A DNA stretch of 32,000 nucleotides from an uncultured bacterium (GCA_963702025.1 OY969699.1:1176279-1208278); one strand, 5' to 3'. Shown: positions 17,382 to 27,642, numbered from the stretch's first letter. Program-made: numbers and translations. The notes: generated from the letters alone by a model not told the origin.

Positions 17382-17523
17382 ACTACCCCTCCCAAAACTG
17401 ATAAATACTATCGTAAGATTACGACAAACAATTACCACGATACAAGAATTAAAAAAAAATTGTATAGTTTCATGTTTTATGAAAGCATCTGTGTTTCAGG
17501 AGAAAGGAAAAGGATAAAAGACG

Positions 17524-17565
17524 TCCTTCGATACGAAAACTGCGTTTTCTACTCAGGATGAGCGG
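17524..17565 (+). repeat. structured repeat, copy a (solo, outer stem missing)
   Basis: TCC-TTCGATAC-GAAAAC-TGC-GTTTTC-TACTCA-GGA-TGA-GCGG. Same architecture as the copies at 19817, 25498 and 25867. Confidence 0.7.
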
Positions 17566-17645
17566 AAGAGACAATTGAGTGAGCCAGAGCCCAGCCTACG
17601 CTTAGTGCTATTATTATTTATTTATATCTTTAAGCCAATCCTTTG

Positions 17646-17703: not shown

Positions 17704-17778
17704 TGGTGCCGGGGGTCGGAATTGAACCAACGACGCCAAGCTCTTCAGGCTTGCGCTCTACCACTGAGCTACCCCGGC
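17704..17778 (-). tRNA. tRNA-Phe (anticodon GAA), CCA encoded
   Basis: The reverse complement reads GCCGGGG TA GCTC AGTGGTA GAGC G CAAGC CTGAAGA GCTTG GCGTC GTTGG TTCAATT CCGAC CCCCGGC A CCA. This gives a perfect 7-bp acceptor stem, the D, anticodon and T arms, and a GAA anticodon. Confidence 0.9.
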
Positions 17779-18965: not shown

Positions 18966-19811
18966 ATGAAAATAACAAAGGTAATTATCCCGGCGGCAGG
19001 ATGGGGAACACGATTTTTGCCTTTCACCAAAGCAGTGCCCAAAGAGATGGTACCGCTGTTGAATAAACCGGCGATTCAGTACATTGTGCAAGAAGCGGTT
19101 GATTCTGGGATAAATAACTGCATTGTGATAACGTCTGCCCATAAACAGGCGCTTATTAATTACTTTAGTCCGCAACCAGCACTTGAGGGTTTTTTACAAG
19201 AAAAAAATAAACTTTCATTACTTACTGGGTTACAAAATCTGTGCAATTCAGTAACCATGGGCTATATCATACAAGAAACAGCGCTCGGTTTAGGTCACGC
19301 GGTTGGCCTTGCCAAAAATAAGATCACTGATGATTATTGTGCCGTTATGCTGCCCGATGACATTATGGTGAGTACCCCCCCGGCACTCGCGCAACTGATA
19401 ACAATTGCGCAAACCTACAAAGCAAGCGTTATTGCCGTGCAAGAAGTGCCTGATAATGCCGTTTCTTCCTATGGCATTGTTGCGATAAAAAAGCAGATTG
19501 AGCCCGGGATTTTTGAGGTTAGTAGCGTTGTTGAAAAACCCACGGTGGCAAATGCGCCGTCACGGCTTGCTATTATTGGCAGATACATACTTTCTCAAAA
19601 AATATTTAAAGCACTAGATGAACTTAAACCGGCAGCAAACGGTGAAATACAGTTAACCGATGCAATCGCTTCATTAATCGCCAGCGGTGAAAAAGTCCTT
19701 GCCTACACGGTACAGGGAACTCGGTACGATGTAGGAACTCCTCACGGCTGGCTCACTGCCAATAGGGACATGGCACGTCACAATCCAGCATTTTCAGATA
19801 TTTTCGAATAA
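18966..19811 (+). CDS. galU: UTP--glucose-1-phosphate uridylyltransferase
   Basis: N-terminal VIIPAAGWGTRFLPFTKAVPKEMVPLLNKPAIQYIVQEA and the later VEKP, IIGRYIL and LTDA motifs. The ATG is 1 nt after the pheS stop. Confidence 0.9.
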   Translation: MKITKVIIPAAGWGTRFLPFTKAVPKEMVPLLNKPAIQYIVQEAVDSGINNCIVITSAHKQALINYFSPQPALEGFLQEKNKLSLLTGLQNLCNSVTMGYIIQETALGLGHAVGLAKNKITDDYCAVMLPDDIMVSTPPALAQLITIAQTYKASVIAVQEVPDNAVSSYGIVAIKKQIEPGIFEVSSVVEKPTVANAPSRLAIIGRYILSQKIFKALDELKPAANGEIQLTDAIASLIASGEKVLAYTVQGTRYDVGTPHGWLTANRDMARHNPAFSDIFE

Positions 19812-19816
19812 AAACA

Positions 19817-19855
19817 CCCTACGATACGCGTTAAACCGCTACTCAGGGCAAACGG
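19817..19855 (+). repeat. structured repeat, copy b (degenerate, solo)
   Basis: CCC-TACGATAC-GCG-TTAAAC-CGC-TACTCA-GGG-CAA-ACGG, beginning 5 nt after the galU stop. Confidence 0.55.
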
Positions 19856-19923
19856 ATCTCATAATTATTGCAATTTGAATATTTTTCATGATACTCTCTA
19901 CAGTGAACATAGGGGAGCGGATC

Positions 19924-20393: not shown

Positions 20394-22772
20394 TTATTTC
20401 TTATACCGCATTAAAAATGGCACTATCGCATCAGGATTTAATGAAACTGATTCAATGCCCAGTTCAATAAGAAAATCGGCAAGCTCCGGATAGTCCGATG
20501 GTGCTTGACCACAAATCCCGCTATATTTCCCAGCTCTTTTTGCGCCGGCAATAGCCAGCTCAAACATTTTTTTCATCGCCGGATCCCGTTCATCAAAAAC
20601 CCCGGCAAGCAAGGGAGAGTCGCGATCCACGCCCAAAGTTAATTGTGTAAGATCATTAGAGCCGATTGAGATACCGTCAAAATCCTGTAAAAATTCATCA
20701 ATCAGCATAACATTTGAGGGAACTTCACACATCATGATAATGGATAAATCATGCTGTTTTTGTATCAAATTATTTGTAGCCATCTCTTCAATAACTTTCT
20801 TTCCCTCAGCAAGTGTGCGCACAAATGGGATCATAACTTTTATATTGGTAAGCCCCATAATTTCACGGGCTTTTTTAAGCGCCGAACATTCCAAGGCAAA
20901 TGCGTGTTTATAACGATCCGCACAATATCTGATCGCGCCACGAAACCCAATCATCGGATTTTCTTCATGCGGCTCAAAGTATTGCCCACCCAGTAAATTA
21001 CTGTATTCGTTGGTTTTAAAATCGGAGGTGCGGACAATTACCGGACGCGGGAAAAATGCTGCGGCAATCGTAGCAATTCCTTGGGCAAGTGTATCAATAT
21101 AAAATTCTTTTTTATCCGCATAGCCGGCCGTAATTTCATTAATCTGCCGTACCATTTTTTTATCGGTAACAATCTCGGGGTATAATAAGGCGAGCGGATG
21201 TATTTTTATCGTATTGGTAATAATAAACTCAATCCGCGCAAGCCCGATCCCATCAACTGGTAAAAAAGATAATGCAAAGGCACGTTCCGGGTCAGCCAAA
21301 TTCATTAAAAGTTGCACCGGCGGTTTTGGTAATACATCCAGAAGAATCTCTTTTTTTTCATAGGCGACAGCGCCTTCATACACATAGCCGGTAATTCCTT
21401 GGGAACAATCGATGGTAATGGTTTGGCCATTGTGTAATATCGACATTGCATCATGAACCCCCACAAGGGCCGGGATTCCCAATTCTCTGCTCACAATTGC
21501 CGCATGACAAGTTCTGCCTCCCATTTGGGTGATAATCCCCGCAGCCTTTTTGAGAAGCGGTACCCAATCAGGATCGGTCATGCGCGTTACAATAATGTCC
21601 CCTTTTTCAACTTTATCAGCCTCCCTTATACTCTCAAGATGGCACACTTTGCCGCTCACAATCTGTTGGCCAATACTCTGACCGTGTGCCAGCACTTTAA
21701 TTTTGGAAGTATCAGTAAATGTATAATTAGTATATGAAAGCCCTTTTTCTTGGGCATGCACCGTTTCGGGCCGCGCTTGCACAATATACAGCATATTATC
21801 AATGCCATCCTTTGCCCACTCAACATCCATAGGGCACCAGGATCCTTTTTGATCGGTATACAATTTCTCAATGGCGCACACCGATTTTGTCAGTTCCAGA
21901 ATTTCATCATCAGTTAAGCAAAATTGCTCTTGCTGCGCCGCCGGCACCGCGGTTTGCATAGTGCCTTTTGGTTTATAGACAATTTTAATCTGCTTACTGC
22001 CACGTTTTTTAGAAATAATTGGCTTGAGGTCATCACGCAAGGTCGGCTTAAATACGATATATTCATCAGGTACCACAAGCCCTTGCACAATTGCTTGGCC
22101 AAGCCCATATGAAGCATTGATAACAACCACATCTTTAAAGCCGCTTTCGGTATCCAAAGAAAAGGCAACACCCGAAGAAGCTTTATCGGATCGCACCATT
22201 TTTTGTACCGCAATAGAAAGAGCAATCTTTTTATAATCAAAACCTTTGTCATTGCGATACACCATCGCGCGATCGGTAAAAAGAGAGGCAAAACATTTTT
22301 TGCATGCATCAATAAGTTCATCCTTGCCACTAATATTTAGGTATGATTCCTGCTGACCGGCAAACGAAGCAGACGGAAGATCTTCGGCAGTTGCTGACGA
22401 ACGCACGGCAACATGAATATTTTTTTGTTGATACTCTTTTGCCAATCCGTGATAGGCAGCATATATTTCTTCGGCAAGATCGGCAGGCATCGGGGCAATA
22501 TGAAATAGATTGCGTATTAAATGGCCCACTTTGTGGATCTTATCAAGATCGGCAAAATCATGAATATCATCCATCATTTTTTCTATATGCGGCATGAGCC
22601 CATTCGCATTAACAAAATGCCAGTATGCATCGGCGGTAATCGCAAAACCGTTGGGCACTTTAACTCCGTGAGAACTGAGCCGTGAATACATATAGCCAAG
22701 CGATGCGGTTTTGCCGCCAACCAAGCCAACATCGCTAATCGTAATTTCAGAAAATTGCTTAATAAATTTCAT
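20394..22772 (-). CDS. ppsA: phosphoenolpyruvate synthase (pyruvate, water dikinase)
   Basis: N-terminal ..DVGLVGGKTASLG.M, phospho-His region GGRTCHAAIVSRELGIPA, and a C-terminal PEP-utilising TIM-barrel (GIGLARIEF, GSNDLTQ). The start is set at MKFIKQF (22772), giving 792 aa. Confidence 0.92.
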   Translation of the reverse strand: MKFIKQFSEITISDVGLVGGKTASLGYMYSRLSSHGVKVPNGFAITADAYWHFVNANGLMPHIEKMMDDIHDFADLDKIHKVGHLIRNLFHIAPMPADLAEEIYAAYHGLAKEYQQKNIHVAVRSSATAEDLPSASFAGQQESYLNISGKDELIDACKKCFASLFTDRAMVYRNDKGFDYKKIALSIAVQKMVRSDKASSGVAFSLDTESGFKDVVVINASYGLGQAIVQGLVVPDEYIVFKPTLRDDLKPIISKKRGSKQIKIVYKPKGTMQTAVPAAQQEQFCLTDDEILELTKSVCAIEKLYTDQKGSWCPMDVEWAKDGIDNMLYIVQARPETVHAQEKGLSYTNYTFTDTSKIKVLAHGQSIGQQIVSGKVCHLESIREADKVEKGDIIVTRMTDPDWVPLLKKAAGIITQMGGRTCHAAIVSRELGIPALVGVHDAMSILHNGQTITIDCSQGITGYVYEGAVAYEKKEILLDVLPKPPVQLLMNLADPERAFALSFLPVDGIGLARIEFIITNTIKIHPLALLYPEIVTDKKMVRQINEITAGYADKKEFYIDTLAQGIATIAAAFFPRPVIVRTSDFKTNEYSNLLGGQYFEPHEENPMIGFRGAIRYCADRYKHAFALECSALKKAREIMGLTNIKVMIPFVRTLAEGKKVIEEMATNNLIQKQHDLSIIMMCEVPSNVMLIDEFLQDFDGISIGSNDLTQLTLGVDRDSPLLAGVFDERDPAMKKMFELAIAGAKRAGKYSGICGQAPSDYPELADFLIELGIESVSLNPDAIVPFLMRYKK

Positions 22773-24214: not shown

Positions 24215-25450
24215 ATGAAAAATAAAATAATCCTCCTCACACTCGGCATAATTTTTCCCTTTAGCATTAGTGCTATTAATTGGACCCCCTTTGCAAATTT
24301 TGTTAATCAAATTGAAAAACGTGACCTGGCAATCGGTGCTGTGACCCTGACGGTTGGTGGTCTAAGCGGGGTTCTTATCAACAATAAGTATAATGCCAAT
24401 GCACTTGCACTTGAAAATTTAAAAATCAAACAAAATAAAGAAAAACAAATAGAACTCCGCAAAAAACAAGAAGAAGAAAAAGCTGAACGGATCAAGCAAG
24501 AAGAACAAGACAGAAAAAATAAAATTGAACAACAAAAAAAGGATGCGCACAGTTTGCTTGATCATATAAAAAATCATTATAACCAGCAGTTTTCTCTTCT
24601 AGCATCAGAAAGGCTTGATCATGATAAGCAAGCTTTTATTAATAGCATAAGAAGTATGTATAACAGTCGGCCATTTTTAACGTTTTATCAGTCTCTTGAA
24701 ACGGATATATTACAGTTAAAAGCCGCGGAAAATATCATACCAGAAAAAGAAACGGTACGAATCGAGCTTGCTGAGAAACTCGAAAAAATAAAAAATAACT
24801 ACAATCTTATGCTTGCTGACCATCAGGAAATTGAGCAACAGAAAAACGATCAATTAAAAAGGCTCGCTGAAGAACATCAACGCAAAAAACAAAAAGAAGA
24901 TCTTGAGCTTGAGAAAATACGTAATGACGAACGTTTTAAAAAAAATAAAGAAGAGATGGAGCTTGAAAAATTACGAATCGAGCAACGGCATGCGCGAGAA
25001 AAAGCGCAATTAGAGCTTGAAAAGCTTCATGCAGAAATTGCGTATTACAAAACATCTAAGCAGGATATAACCAAAGAACTCGAGGCAATTAAACACGAAC
25101 TAAAAAACCGTGACAAAATGCAACCGTCATGGGCAGCAGAATTTACGCGACTCATAAAAGATGAGATTACGACATTAAAAAAACGTATGGACACGGTGGA
25201 AAATTCAATCGTTGGCAATATTGCGAGTTTCAAAAAAGATGTTGCTGATGTTAAAAAAGATGTTAGAGATTTCAAGCAAATCCTTGAAAAAAATCAGCCA
25301 CAGTCATATATATTGCCACCGCCCTATAATCCAGCGGCACAGCAACCATACAATTCACCAGTTCCGTCACATCAACCACCACCAAGTTTTGGGTATGGTG
25401 AAACACAAACTAACCCGGACATGGTAGCCATTCCGGTGCCAAGAAGCTAG
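24215..25450 (+). CDS. membrane-anchored coiled-coil protein with Pro-rich C-terminus (PPPY)
   Basis: AAGGTGA Shine-Dalgarno, N-terminal signal/TM plus a second hydrophobic segment, and about 300 aa of Lys/Glu/Gln-rich heptad-like sequence. Three 18-aa LELEK repeats. C-terminus ILPPPYNPAAQQPYNSPVPSHQPPPSFGYG. Confidence 0.65.
   Translation: MKNKIILLTLGIIFPFSISAINWTPFANFVNQIEKRDLAIGAVTLTVGGLSGVLINNKYNANALALENLKIKQNKEKQIELRKKQEEEKAERIKQEEQDRKNKIEQQKKDAHSLLDHIKNHYNQQFSLLASERLDHDKQAFINSIRSMYNSRPFLTFYQSLETDILQLKAAENIIPEKETVRIELAEKLEKIKNNYNLMLADHQEIEQQKNDQLKRLAEEHQRKKQKEDLELEKIRNDERFKKNKEEMELEKLRIEQRHAREKAQLELEKLHAEIAYYKTSKQDITKELEAIKHELKNRDKMQPSWAAEFTRLIKDEITTLKKRMDTVENSIVGNIASFKKDVADVKKDVRDFKQILEKNQPQSYILPPPYNPAAQQPYNSPVPSHQPPPSFGYGETQTNPDMVAIPVPRS
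24902..25063 (+). repeat. three tandem 54-nt (18-aa) coding repeats
   Basis: cttgagcttgagaaa at 24902, atggagcttgaaaaa at 24956 and ttagagcttgaaaag at 25010. Each unit begins with (L/M)ELEK. Confidence 0.6.
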
Positions 25451-25497
25451 TGTAGTAATTAAGGCTTAAGATAAAAACTAGAGACACAATTGAAAAA

Positions 25498-25549
25498 GGC
25501 CGCTCGTGGTGAGTAGGCTCTGCAAGAGCCGTATCGAATCCATGCGGCC
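25498..25549 (-). repeat. structured repeat, copy c (complete, inverted orientation)
   Basis: The reverse complement reads GGCCGC-A-TGG-ATTCGATAC-GGCTCT-TGC-AGAGCC-TACTCA-CCA-CGA-GCGGCC. It ends 17 nt before the GIY-YIG ATG. Confidence 0.75.
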
Positions 25550-25566
25550 TAAAAATTTAAGATATT

Positions 25567-25854
25567 ATGAATTGCTTTTATGTATATATTTTAAGATGCA
25601 ATGATAGCTCTTATTATGTCGGACATACTGATAATATTGAAAAAAGAATTGCAGAGCATGTCTCAGGTTCTTATCCCGGTTATACACAAACGCGTTTACC
25701 TATAGAGCTTGTTTATATGCAAGAGTTTGCAAGCCGTGATGAAGCCCTCAACGCAGAACATCAAATAAAGAAATGGAATCGAAAGAAAAAGGAAGCACTT
25801 ATTGACAATGATTGGAACTCTTTAAAATTGTTAGCGAAAAAGAAATTCTATTGA
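25567..25854 (+). CDS. GIY-YIG nuclease family protein (small stand-alone YhbQ/UPF0213-like type)
   Basis: FYVYIL (GIY), YYVGHT (YIG), KRIAEH (Arg) and NAEHQIKKW (Glu) in the canonical order; 95 aa. No obvious Shine-Dalgarno. Confidence 0.85.
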   Translation: MNCFYVYILRCNDSSYYVGHTDNIEKRIAEHVSGSYPGYTQTRLPIELVYMQEFASRDEALNAEHQIKKWNRKKKEALIDNDWNSLKLLAKKKFY

Positions 25855-25866
25855 TGAATGTTTATT

Positions 25867-25920
25867 AAACCCGCATGGTTCGATATGATTGCTTCGCAAT
25901 CACTCACCACGAGCGGGTTT
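25867..25920 (+). repeat. structured repeat, copy d (complete, forward orientation)
   Basis: AAACCCGC-A-TGG-TTCGATAT-GATTGC-TTC-GCAATC-ACTCA-CCA-CGA-GCGGGTTT. It starts 12 nt after the GIY-YIG stop. Confidence 0.75.
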
Positions 25921-25962
25921 TATGATTAACTTTTACAATTCTTACCTTGAAGATAATCTTAT

Positions 25963-27642
25963 CTACTTTCTATTTGCTTGCCGTGCAATACAGGCAACAA
26001 TAAATCCCTCAAAAAGCGGGCTTGGGTTTCCAAGCCTGCTTTTAAATTCAGGATGTGCTTGGGTGGCAATAAAAAATGGATGGTCCGCAATTTCTAAAAA
26101 TTCCATTAAGCGTGTGCCATCATGCCGTTCATGATAACCGGAAAATGTAATGCCTTTTTGTTCCAGCACATCAACATACACCGGATTCACTTCATAGCGA
26201 TGACGGTGCCGTTCATTCACGACATATTTTTCCTCGTAATACTCTACTTTATTAGCTTTTGCGTAGAGTTGCGCCACTTTACTTTCTTTTTTTACGGTGG
26301 CCGCATACCCGCCAAGCCGCATCGAGCCACCGATAGAATGCTCGGCAAGCATCTGTTTTTGGGTAGGTAAAATGTCGATAATAGGAAATTCAGTAGCATC
26401 ATTCACTTCTGTGGTATGTGCCGTTTTTAAATTGCAACTAGTGCGCGCAAATTCAACGGCAGCCAGCTGCATGCCATAACAAAGTCCCAGATAAGGAATA
26501 TTATTGTGCCGAACATAGCCGATTGTAGAAATCTTTCCTTCCACGCCAGCACTGCCAAAGCCACCGGGAATAATTACCCCATCAAAAAGAGCAAGTATCT
26601 TGAGCTGCTCAAGATTCGTTGTTTCAAACATCTGCGCATTGATCCAATTAATTTCAATGCCAATATTATGCTGCGCCCCGGCATGTACCAATGCCTGATA
26701 AATGCTCACATAACTATCAGTGAGACTAAAATCACCAATGTCCAAATATTTACCCACAATAGCAATTTTGACTTTATAGGATGGATTTTTGATTGCGTTA
26801 ACCAATCCGTTCCACCTTTGCCAATCCGGCACTCTTTTAGATGGTAAATGGAAATGGCGCAACACTTTTTGCCCGAGTTGCTCACGTTCCAGGTAGAGGG
26901 GCATTTCGTACACCGTATCGATATCAGGCGCAGAGATAATTTGATCTGCATGCACATAAGAACATTGTTCTATCTTTTTCTTGCGAATTTCATCAAGCGG
27001 CTGCTTTGCACGGCAAATGATAAAATCAGGCAAAATTCCTTCTTGCCCCAGAAGCCGTACGGCTTGTTGCGTCGGTTTTGTCTTCATCTCTTGCATATGA
27101 TCAGGAATCGGCAAGTAGGTGACCAACACATAGGCGATACTGTCAGCGCCAAGTTCCCGCTCTAAACCTTTGATTGCAAATAAAAATGGCACGTTTTCAT
27201 AATCACCGACGGTGCCCCCCAATTCTATAATGGCAATCTCATAGCCTGCTGATGCATCTAGGATGCGGCGTTTAACTTCATCCAAAATATGGGGCATAAA
27301 TTGTACCGTTTGGCCCAAATATTCGCCACGTCGTTCACGATCAATAACCGTCTTATAAATTTGGCCGGTGGTTATGTTATTTTTCTTGGGGATATCTTCA
27401 TCTAAAAATCGTTCATAGGTACCCAAATCTTGGTCAATTTCGCCGCCATCTTCTGTTACCCAGACTTCGCCATGTTCCGTGGGCCTCAAAGTCCCTGCGT
27501 CGTAATTGATATACGGATCAATCTTAATTAAGGTGGTTTTATACCCATGTTCTTTTAAAATCTTGCCCAAGGATGCCGTGGTTACGCCTTTGCCAACCCC
27601 GGAAATAACTCCTCCTGCAACAACAATAAATTTTGTATTCAT
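25963..27642 (-). CDS. pyrG: CTP synthase
   Basis: N-terminal KFIVVAGGVISGVGKG and the glutamine amidotransferase domain (GLCYGMQ, HRHRYEVN); 559 aa. Confidence 0.95.
   Translation of the reverse strand: MNTKFIVVAGGVISGVGKGVTTASLGKILKEHGYKTTLIKIDPYINYDAGTLRPTEHGEVWVTEDGGEIDQDLGTYERFLDEDIPKKNNITTGQIYKTVIDRERRGEYLGQTVQFMPHILDEVKRRILDASAGYEIAIIELGGTVGDYENVPFLFAIKGLERELGADSIAYVLVTYLPIPDHMQEMKTKPTQQAVRLLGQEGILPDFIICRAKQPLDEIRKKKIEQCSYVHADQIISAPDIDTVYEMPLYLEREQLGQKVLRHFHLPSKRVPDWQRWNGLVNAIKNPSYKVKIAIVGKYLDIGDFSLTDSYVSIYQALVHAGAQHNIGIEINWINAQMFETTNLEQLKILALFDGVIIPGGFGSAGVEGKISTIGYVRHNNIPYLGLCYGMQLAAVEFARTSCNLKTAHTTEVNDATEFPIIDILPTQKQMLAEHSIGGSMRLGGYAATVKKESKVAQLYAKANKVEYYEEKYVVNERHRHRYEVNPVYVDVLEQKGITFSGYHERHDGTRLMEFLEIADHPFFIATQAHPEFKSRLGNPSPLFEGFIVACIARQANRK

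Follow-up and report, generated by a model that had tools for sequence, protein, structure and literature searches.

The stretch of DNA analysed here, 32 kb in full and hereafter called the window, belongs to a Dependentiae (TM6/Babeliales) bacterium, as judged by best protein and locus matches. In the gap between a coiled-coil gene and pyrG, which are convergent, a small gene for a GIY-YIG nuclease could be identified between two inward-facing copies of a hairpin repeat, each bordered on its outside by a short arm. Two solo copies of the same repeat occur elsewhere in the window. The features are listed by window coordinates:

17513-17572, minus strand: solo hairpin copy with P2 ATCC/GGAC, between tRNA-Phe and a small ORF (50.5 bits, E 6.1e-12)
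19806-19862, minus strand: solo hairpin copy with P2 GCCC/GGGT, directly 3' of the stop of an NTP-transferase gene (39.8 bits, E 5.5e-09)
25451-25497, plus strand: outer arm on the left of the inserted element, made up of a degenerate terminal inverted repeat and then 'arm A'
25498-25549, plus strand: hairpin repeat copy c, forward toward the gene (covariance model 65 bits, E 5.8e-16)
25526-25529, plus strand: GAGC microhomology in the copy c hairpin, one end of a 385-bp deletion in 96% identical relatives
25567-25854, plus strand: gene for a 95-residue single-domain GIY-YIG nuclease, probably of the Ssn type
25867-25920, minus strand: hairpin repeat copy d, forward toward the gene (68 bits, E 7.6e-17)
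25911-25914, plus strand: GAGC microhomology at which the 385-bp deletion ends on the other side; reverse complement of part of the CGCTC conserved in copy d
25921-25962, minus strand: right outer arm, a degenerate terminal inverted repeat followed by 'arm B'

The left arm starts directly 3' of the TAG stop codon of the coiled-coil gene and the right arm ends immediately ahead of the stop codon of pyrG; the full 512 bp between these genes (about 25451-25962) constitute the inserted unit. A first-pass annotation had described the ORF between its two opposite-facing repeat copies, and all of these coordinates were confirmed, as were the two solo copies, which the covariance model matches at the positions listed. 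The unit that it described, the 423 bp between the outer ends of the repeats, is part of this longer insertion of 512 bp. Copy c is separated from the ATG by 17 nt, and the stop codon from copy d by 12 nt. No target duplication is visible in the window's own copy, as the annotation had stated, though the closest sister element has one (see below).

Copies c and d share an identical 14-mer, CGCTCGTGGTGAGT, to which chance matches with up to three mismatches are expected 0.81 times per window; four such matches were reached in none of 100 shuffles. A second stretch, TATCGAA(T)CCATGCGG, is also common to both, whereas their central (apical) hairpins differ (GGCTCTGCAAGAGCC in copy c versus GATTGCGAAGCAATC in copy d). 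Both copies fold far better than shuffled sequence, with z-scores of -3.7 and -5.6. With filters off, the covariance model identified exactly four strong copies in the whole 32 kb (E 7.6e-17 to 5.5e-09), with match bounds 25865-25923(-), 25493-25553(+), 17513-17572(-) and 19806-19862(-), and a weak match at 21110-21204, within a PEP-synthase ORF, was dismissed as chance. The model is strongly directional, copy d scoring 68 bits in the forward and 11.6 bits in the reverse orientation. There is no second GIY-YIG gene elsewhere in the window, and the ORF adjoining the solo copy at 17513 does not encode a GIY-YIG protein.

A consensus built on 33 copies from many genomes describes a repeat of about 55 nt with the core CCGC-TC-[4 bp]-TGAG...CGAA-[4 bp]-GCGG. 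From 5' to 3' it comprises an A-rich flank, the stem P1 (CCGC/GCGG plus covarying outer pairs), an unpaired TC, the 4-bp stem P2, TGAG, a variable loop or extra hairpin, (T)CGAA, P2' and P1'. In copy c these elements are P1 CCGC/GCGG, the TC bulge, P2 GTGG/CCAT, the TGAG/CGAA core and a variable apical hairpin. P2 shows covariation of the types UA/CG, CG/GC and CG/GC, with 97% of the cells in this helix paired; the covariation score was unmatched in 500 shuffles and collapsed in slid controls. The first P2 pair is G.U in 27 of the 33 copies, on the forward strand only. Since the opposite strand would have an A.C mismatch at this position, the fold is selected on one strand only.

In the core, two base pairs connect TGAG with CGAA, one between the initial T and the final A (UA in 32 copies, CG in one) and the other between the final G and the initial C (GC in 33/33). 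At two loci both partners of the T-A or the G-C pair are altered together (CGAG/TCGAG in L007, TGAA/TTGAA in L024). On the basis of these pairings and paired changes we read the core as a continuous helix that would contain tandem G.A/A.G pairs; the paired changes favour this over the minimum-free-energy 'AA-bulge' model (UGA with UCG), which was rejected. The apical part is freely replaceable and ranges from a 5-nt loop to hairpin modules, which recur at either end of different cassettes, and to whole nested hairpins (L004, L013 and L017). Minimal copies (TGAGCCTGTCGAA) limit the conserved part to TGAG/CGAA. A tRNA-like T-loop, a loop E/sarcin-ricin motif and a hammerhead core (suggested by TGAGTA/GTATCGAA) were considered, and their spacing does not fit.

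The Pfam GIY-YIG domain (PF01541) covers residues 3-75 of the 95-residue protein (E 1.8e-20). In Pfam the only other match was a weak one to the related nuclease domain T5orf172, and no Y1_Tnp domain was found. Residues Y7, Y17, R27, H31 and E64 are invariant among 18 aligned homologs, and a dN/dS of about 0.1 against the sister elements indicates that the gene is under purifying selection. Exact-sequence look-ups of the window protein and of P0015 gave no match. The best matches in the structural database are UPF0213 proteins (YhbQ, BH0048 = PDB 1zg2, and EF2693 = 1ywl; 41-43% identity), the closest solved structure being 1zg2 (phmmer, E 3.6e-17). With BH0048 the window protein shares 43% identity (E 1e-24), and with the protein of L025, a canonical Ssn-type homolog from an alphaproteobacterium, 39% identity over 93% of its length (E 9e-20); its C-terminal half (EHQIKKWNRKKKEALI..DW..L) resembles the latter. 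Because the score to BH0048 is higher than that to L025, while these two are mutually only 29% identical, the Dependentiae clade appears from sequence comparison to be intermediate between the canonical Ssn type and UPF0213, with cd10448 or cd10456 as candidate CDD subfamilies.

The association between repeat and gene was examined from both sides. The gene-first sample consisted of 28 genomic homolog loci, the metagenome-assembly locus L029 and the window, 30 loci in total. At 21 of these, the gene has an inward-facing copy no more than 150 nt away on either side. Altogether 45 of the 71 model matches fall within gene-flank windows, where 1.7 are expected (about 26-fold enrichment, p ~1e-54), a count that is partly circular, since some of those copies had served to train the second model; the first model, built from five sequences, already showed the flank pattern. 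Flanking hairpins are also present at one Dehalococcoidia and one Allosphingosinicella locus. P2 is nearly always identical at both ends of one gene, and differs between loci. Enrichment beside GIY-YIG genes, which the first-pass annotation had made decisive for a link between nuclease and repeat, is thus pronounced, in favour of a real association.

The repeat-first sample, obtained by an exact-pattern scan of metagenome contigs, comprised 38 stretches (214 kb) with 61 model matches. No GIY-YIG gene was found in 37 of them; the remaining stretch has a GIY-YIG gene exactly between two copies. Many gene-less inverted doublets could be identified; in some the copies face inward across a spacer of 5-58 nt, in others they face outward and directly adjoin. 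Between a doublet spacer and the 5' end of the gene there is an exact colinear match of 11-12 nt (E 0.02-0.08), a weak hint that the spacer derives from the gene, on which no conclusion is based here. Overall, the genes are few and have hairpins on their flanks, and hairpins that lack a gene are numerous.

Comparison of the pyrG site among relatives provides direct evidence for gain and partial loss of the unit. Relatives with pyrG 85% and 80% identical to that of the window also have pyrG and the coiled-coil gene in convergent orientation, with a gap of 14 bp or a 4-bp gene overlap, and without a hairpin. As the gap in these distant relatives is at most 14 bp and hairpin-free, the 512-bp intergenic region of the window is an insertion. 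In a 96% identical relative, represented by six contigs, the gap measures 127 bp. Besides the left and right outer arms, it comprises 7 nt from the start of copy d and, read on the opposite strand, the 5'-terminal 31 nt of copy c. Here 385 bp are absent (25530-25914), with the junction at a 4-nt GCTC/GAGC microhomology; this gap was placed by blastn HSPs, as MAFFT misplaced the large gap in the alignment of window and relative. A remnant of each hairpin is left, which identifies the site as the scar of a deletion and not as an unoccupied target. This relative also lacks the solo copy at 19806 and has an unrelated 37 nt between the conserved flanks. Insertion followed by partial deletion has therefore taken place at orthologous sites, and relatives in which two hairpins alone would serve as convergent terminators, an outcome that the first-pass annotation had envisaged, were not seen: the sites are either empty or scarred.

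Four cassettes (those of the window, L029, L001 and L004) occupy unrelated gene contexts, with strong homology over the hairpin-gene-hairpin block, a sharp drop outside it and weak homology in the outer arms. The closest sister, L029, is the same element as L081, and its protein is 86% identical to that of the window. About 45 nt outside each hairpin this element ends in a 19-bp terminal inverted repeat (TIR), (A)CGTGAACTYGATCTAAGAA. An empty site for L081 is provided by L078, in which the neighbouring gene is 84% identical, the convergent gap is 12 bp and no hairpin is present; blastn comparison of the two shows TAATTTA(A), 7-8 bp, duplicated on either side of a 579-580-bp insert. The window arms are homologous to the two distinct arms of this element in matching orientation to the gene, 25451-25497 to arm A and the right arm TAAGAATTGTAAAAGTTAATCATAAAAC to arm B (TAAGAATTTTAAAAGTTAATTATACTAAAC). 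The window TIRs have degenerated, which would be expected if the copy is old and fixed. Gene, both hairpins and some 45 nt of outer arm on each side form a unit that is gained and lost as a block.

Gene-less versions of 269 bp (TIR, arm, hairpin, 58 nt, hairpin, arm, TIR) were found at no fewer than four different sites with unrelated flanks; three are 93-95% identical to each other and the fourth about 84%. One of them has a perfect 7-bp duplication, TATACTA. Among the elements, the distance from TIR end to hairpin varies from 41 to 54 nt, and each arm has conserved its TIR and hairpin but not the intervening spacer. In the L006 subfamily the inverted arms are about 130 nt long and quite unlike the others, around an unchanged hairpin-gene-hairpin core. 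In the 548 kb of sequence fetched, the TIR motif was found solely beside these hairpins and nowhere around a transposase gene; two matches in viral contigs lie inside coding sequence and were regarded as chance. The sole ORF of the full-length element is the GIY-YIG gene.

An association of this kind between hairpins and a GIY-YIG enzyme was undescribed as far as the first-pass annotation was aware, but has been published for the Ssn family of single-domain GIY-YIG nucleases of about 94 residues (CDD cd10448; Chenal et al., Nat Commun 2025, PMC11893778). Hairpin repeats (NTS/SRM) were reported near 71% of Ssn genes, and on both sides of 42% (PMC11893778). The Neisseria enzyme binds its hairpin only as single-stranded DNA and only one strand of it, does not bind RNA, nicks a few nucleotides 5' of the hairpin and tolerates loop extensions; the flanking hairpin of the Wolbachia enzyme is likewise cut as single-stranded DNA, on one strand and on the 5' side (PMC11893778). 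Recognition of the hairpin has been demonstrated experimentally for four nucleases of the family (PMC11893778). The hypothesis of the first-pass annotation that the nuclease recognises the repeat agrees with these experiments, to the extent that the present protein is probably related.

The likeness to Ssn systems extends to many properties. The protein is a single-domain GIY-YIG enzyme of matching length (95 versus about 94 residues) with no other domain, and its Y7, Y17 and E64 correspond to the catalytic Tyr, Tyr and Glu (Y6, Y17 and E64 of Neisseria SsnA; PMC11893778). In both cases directional hairpin repeats, 20-55 nt long, lie within 500 bp on either side of the gene (here at 17 nt on its 5' side and 12 nt on its 3' side); many additional copies are dispersed, mainly in intergenic regions; a conserved non-palindromic 5' flank ending in TC precedes the stem; loop extensions are tolerated; and the systems are enriched in host-associated bacteria. 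There are also differences. The core CGCTC-[4 bp]-TGAG...CGAA-[4 bp]-GCGG has probable tandem G.A pairs and usually an extra apical hairpin, and by subfamily the protein appears to fall between UPF0213 and the canonical type. The published SRM pattern, HGTCWYN(0-2)YYVSBRHN(0-5)WNVSBRGN(0-2)RNCYNB, matches nowhere in the window, as the copies have CGCTC instead of GTC in the flank and an interrupted stem; among the loci searched it matches only in L021, L025 and L027. The distant homolog L025 bridges the window type and the Neisseria type. Its flanks, CCGCTCATTCCCGTGAAAGCGGGAATCC and CCGCTCATCCCCGCGGAAGCGGGGATCCAG, are nearly the Neisseria NTS but start with CGCTC, and the residues mutated in Neisseria SsnA, Y6, Y17 and E64, are present at the same positions in the L025 protein. 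On this evidence the window protein is probably related to the Ssn family, and we consider it likely that the locus is a further example of the nuclease-plus-hairpin pairs of that family.

We propose that the locus carries a nuclease-hairpin module of the Ssn type on a small mobile cassette, in which the protein would act as a single-stranded-DNA endonuclease on the forward strand of the hairpin and nick it on the 5' side; by analogy with the characterised enzymes, we regard this as the probable reading. The substrates would be the hairpins of about 55 nt that flank the gene and are scattered through the genome. From homology with characterised Ssn enzymes, binding is expected only when the hairpin DNA is single-stranded, as in replication, repair or DNA uptake, and only to the strand 5'-CCGC-TC-[RYSS]-TGAG...CGAA-[SSRY]-GCGG-3'. 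The nick is predicted to fall in the A-rich flank, a few nucleotides 5' of the hairpin. With the two flanking copies facing inwards, such nicks would bracket the gene, at the outer edges of the block and on opposite strands. We infer from the same homology both the specificity for single-stranded DNA and the position of the cut. The nuclease may further drive or assist the spread of the hairpins, with a possible benefit or cost to the host. The strand-specific G.T wobble in 27 of the 33 copies is consistent with recognition of one strand. Some caution is advised by the window copies falling outside the SRM pattern and by BH0048 being slightly closer than L025; a hydrolytic GIY-YIG enzyme, moreover, by itself leaves the TIRs and the target duplication unexplained.

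How the cassette itself moves is a separate matter. It may be a passenger, similar to a MIC or MITE, moved in trans by an unlinked DDE-type transposase acting on the 19-bp TIRs, with nuclease and hairpins as cargo that has a function of its own, e.g. restriction of single-stranded DNA, and no role in transposition. GIY-YIG enzymes are hydrolases and are not known to have strand-transfer activity. TIRs with a 7-8-bp target duplication are a signature of DDE transposition, and the gene-less derivatives with identical TIRs at four or more sites agree with this; as such a hydrolase does not account for these ends, and as the distance between TIR and hairpin varies, a transposase acting in trans is a serious rival, which we hold to be quite possible though not favoured. 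Against it, the TIR motif occurs in the 548 kb solely beside these hairpins and around no transposase gene, and the GIY-YIG gene is the only ORF of the full-length element. In addition, conservation of TIR and hairpin in both arms, but not of the spacer, suggests that both modules matter to the element, and subfamilies of the L006 type have very different outer arms around the same hairpin-gene-hairpin core.

More tentatively, the unit of about 510-580 bp (TIR, arm, hairpin, gene, hairpin, arm, TIR) could be an autonomous transposable element with a 95-residue single-stranded-DNA nuclease as its sole protein, of which the 269-bp doublets would be non-autonomous derivatives and the solo hairpins footprints. 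Nicking would start the movement, and replication and repair by the host would complete the insertion with its 7-8-bp duplication. We consider this somewhat unlikely. Cutting at the element ends by a hairpin-bound nuclease is disfavoured, because the TIR-to-hairpin distance is not constant (41-54 nt).

It is very improbable that, as the first-pass annotation had suggested, a free-standing homing-type GIY-YIG gene has split a pre-existing palindrome into two inverted halves. Hairpin loops do tolerate insertions, as the nested hairpins of L004, L013 and L017 show, but each flanking copy is complete with its own apical hairpin, both copies travel with the gene to unrelated contexts, and the ancestral pyrG junction and the empty site L078 are both free of hairpins. 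The protein, furthermore, has no DNA-binding domain, and scores only 19.5 bits with the group I intron endonuclease model TIGR01453 (cutoff 56).

There is equally little to recommend a main role of the hairpins as RNA, either as terminators of the convergent genes or as 5' and 3' elements that pair in the mRNA and control expression of the GIY-YIG gene, which was another suggestion of that annotation. The copies are stable as RNA and located at gene ends (c after the coiled-coil gene, d after pyrG), and a secondary role as terminators is possible. However, a terminator would not require a core conserved across phyla, the solo copies point in both directions with respect to the gene upstream, and the single terminator-like site called in 25300-26100 lies outside the repeats. 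No Rfam family matched at gathering thresholds, and searches at E <=10 gave noise only. Pairing in the mRNA fits poorly, since the G.T wobble is specific for the forward strand and the two ends are on opposite strands, so that no single transcript has both copies in the favoured form; Neisseria SsnA, in addition, does not bind RNA (PMC11893778).

Finally, an ordinary housekeeping nuclease of the UPF0213/YhbQ type that lies between REP-like repeats by chance is hardly credible, despite the UPF0213 proteins being its best solved-structure matches (43% identity to BH0048), as the gene is missing from the same locus in close relatives, its context differs in each genome, several paralogues and pseudogenised copies are present per genome, and the flank association is far beyond chance (p ~1e-54).

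The probable reading, an Ssn-type module on a mobile cassette, bears on questions that were left open in the original description, namely the roles of these enzymes elsewhere and whether the hairpin-gene-hairpin unit is a mobile element. That study covers activity in vitro and the role of the Neisseria enzyme in transformation, and it likens 'NTS-ssnA-NTS' to an insertion sequence (PMC11893778). TIRs, target duplications, MITEs and Dependentiae are not mentioned in its main text, and gene-less doublets and filled or empty sites are not reported (PMC11893778). New in the present work are the hairpin variant outside the published pattern, the distinction between pairs on both sides of the gene and gene-less dispersal, and the evidence for mobility. 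The loci supply natural filled, empty and scarred sites, TIRs with a duplication, and recently spread gene-less derivatives, which together make the question of mobility directly testable. The published motif misses a whole class of hairpins, found here in Dependentiae and at single loci of Dehalococcoidia and Sphingomonadaceae. Its hairpins combine a core of probable tandem G.A pairs with a 4-bp specificity stem, which varies among copies in the same genome, and a loop that can be freely exchanged. This class may be an untapped source of enzyme/site pairs for single-stranded-DNA tools. If the reading as an autonomous element were true, the unit would represent a new class of prokaryotic transposon.

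Several other known systems have parts in common with the cassette. The UPF0213 proteins YhbQ, BH0048 and EF2693 have equal length and the same catalytic residues (41-43% identity); their genes are generally stable and single-copy, and are not known to be flanked by hairpins. Homing endonucleases of the I-TevI type and the endonucleases of Penelope-like elements have the GIY-YIG catalytic domain in common with the window protein and serve a mobile element. These enzymes have DNA-binding domains or are fused to a reverse transcriptase, and act on double-stranded targets. The window protein, in contrast to the homing endonucleases, is a bare domain without a DNA-binding domain.

The L029/L081 element resembles MITEs and MICs in having TIRs and a target duplication without a transposase gene, and in its 269-bp gene-less derivatives at multiple sites; the window's own copy has homologous arms, but degenerate TIRs and no visible duplication. 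It differs from MITEs and MICs in that no cognate IS or transposase was found in the 548 kb, and in that the hairpin pair and the nuclease gene are conserved and not arbitrary cargo. With the 'peel and paste' elements of the IS200/IS605 family the cassette shares subterminal hairpins, whose recognition as single-stranded DNA is predicted here. The ends of IS200/IS605 elements are not inverted repeats, both cuts are made on one strand, and target duplication is absent. The cassette, by contrast, has its hairpins in inverted orientation, and in the sister element 19-bp TIRs are accompanied by a 7-8-bp duplication.

The closest parallel in logic is the REPtron (REPIN-RAYT), to which the first-pass annotation had aptly compared the locus, although the comparison with REP/RAYT had already been drawn by Chenal et al. 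2025 (PMC11893778). The enzyme here is a GIY-YIG hydrolase and not an HUH/Y1 transposase; a covalent intermediate is impossible. Both systems nevertheless consist of one small enzyme gene between inverted hairpin repeats, together with many dispersed solo and inverted-doublet copies that presumably are its substrates.

The apical hairpins, the variable and replaceable part of the repeat above its core, appear as modules that are shuffled between cassette ends and between genomes, as seen in copies c and d of the window and in the flanking copies of the nuclease-homolog loci L029 (the closest sister element), L001 and L004. The module GATTGCGAAGCAATC is common to copy d, the downstream copy of L029 and the upstream copy of L004, while GCGAGCATCGCGAGC is common to the upstream copy of L029 and the downstream copy of L001. 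This shuffling suggests exchange between copies.

The cassettes themselves are found in several states. In L004 (3001-3410; 79% protein identity) the nuclease gene has been inactivated by a GAG to TAA change at codon 53 and a frameshift, and both hairpins are intact; the loop of the downstream one contains a second, nested hairpin in opposite orientation. In the subfamily represented by L006 (2820-3430), inverted arms starting from AATGACTCACC run for about 75 nt outside each hairpin; these arms showed no similarity to the CGTGAAC-type terminal inverted repeat (TIR) of L029, and no target duplication was evident at this locus. The alphaproteobacterial homolog L025 (2860-3440) is surrounded by four near-canonical hairpins of the NTS type, the repeat of the Neisseria Ssn nucleases, and its ORF, 145 aa long, continues into the repeats downstream, from which its terminal part (SSAHPRG...) derives. 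Such read-through probably inflates annotated protein lengths in the nuclease family. One transposase gene was identified near the L029 cassette:

L029:19320-20288, IS110-family transposase gene (DEDD_Tnp_IS110), about 9 kb from the cassette.

The IS110 family is not known to generate TIRs or duplications, and this gene is therefore probably unrelated.

The solo hairpin at 19806-19862, 3' of an NTP-transferase gene, is absent from the 96% relative, in which 37 nt of unrelated sequence take its place between well-conserved flanks (L031:13390-13510); no TIR or duplication was visible on comparing the two sites. Solo copies are thus also subject to fast turnover. The other solo copy (17513-17572) shares its strand with a nearby gene:

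17704-17778, minus strand, tRNA-Phe (GAA) gene, about 130 nt from this hairpin.

The covarying P2 stem is ATCC/GGAC in this copy and GCCC/GGGT at 19806-19862, and GTGG/CCAT in the gene-flanking pair (25498-25920). If the enzyme reads P2, the solo copies may be partners of further GIY-YIG paralogues encoded outside this region of the genome.

The coiled-coil, proline-rich protein adjoining the cassette (24215-25450), probably a secreted or membrane protein, is fast-evolving; its identity is 73% in the 96% relative (L031:7805-9004), where that of pyrG is 96%, and 32% in the relative with 85% identical pyrG. On the pyrG side, a relative with 82% identical pyrG carries a compound (nested) solo hairpin directly 3' of this gene (L037:5680-5800), adjoining DUF885, a neighbour differing from that in the window. 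The pyrG 3' end may be a recurrent landing place. At L060:4149-4995, an inward-facing hairpin pair encloses not a nuclease gene but a 210-aa ORF whose N-terminus resembles a signal peptide, which is reminiscent of Neisseria, where surface-protein genes occur in an 'NTS-gene-NTS' arrangement.
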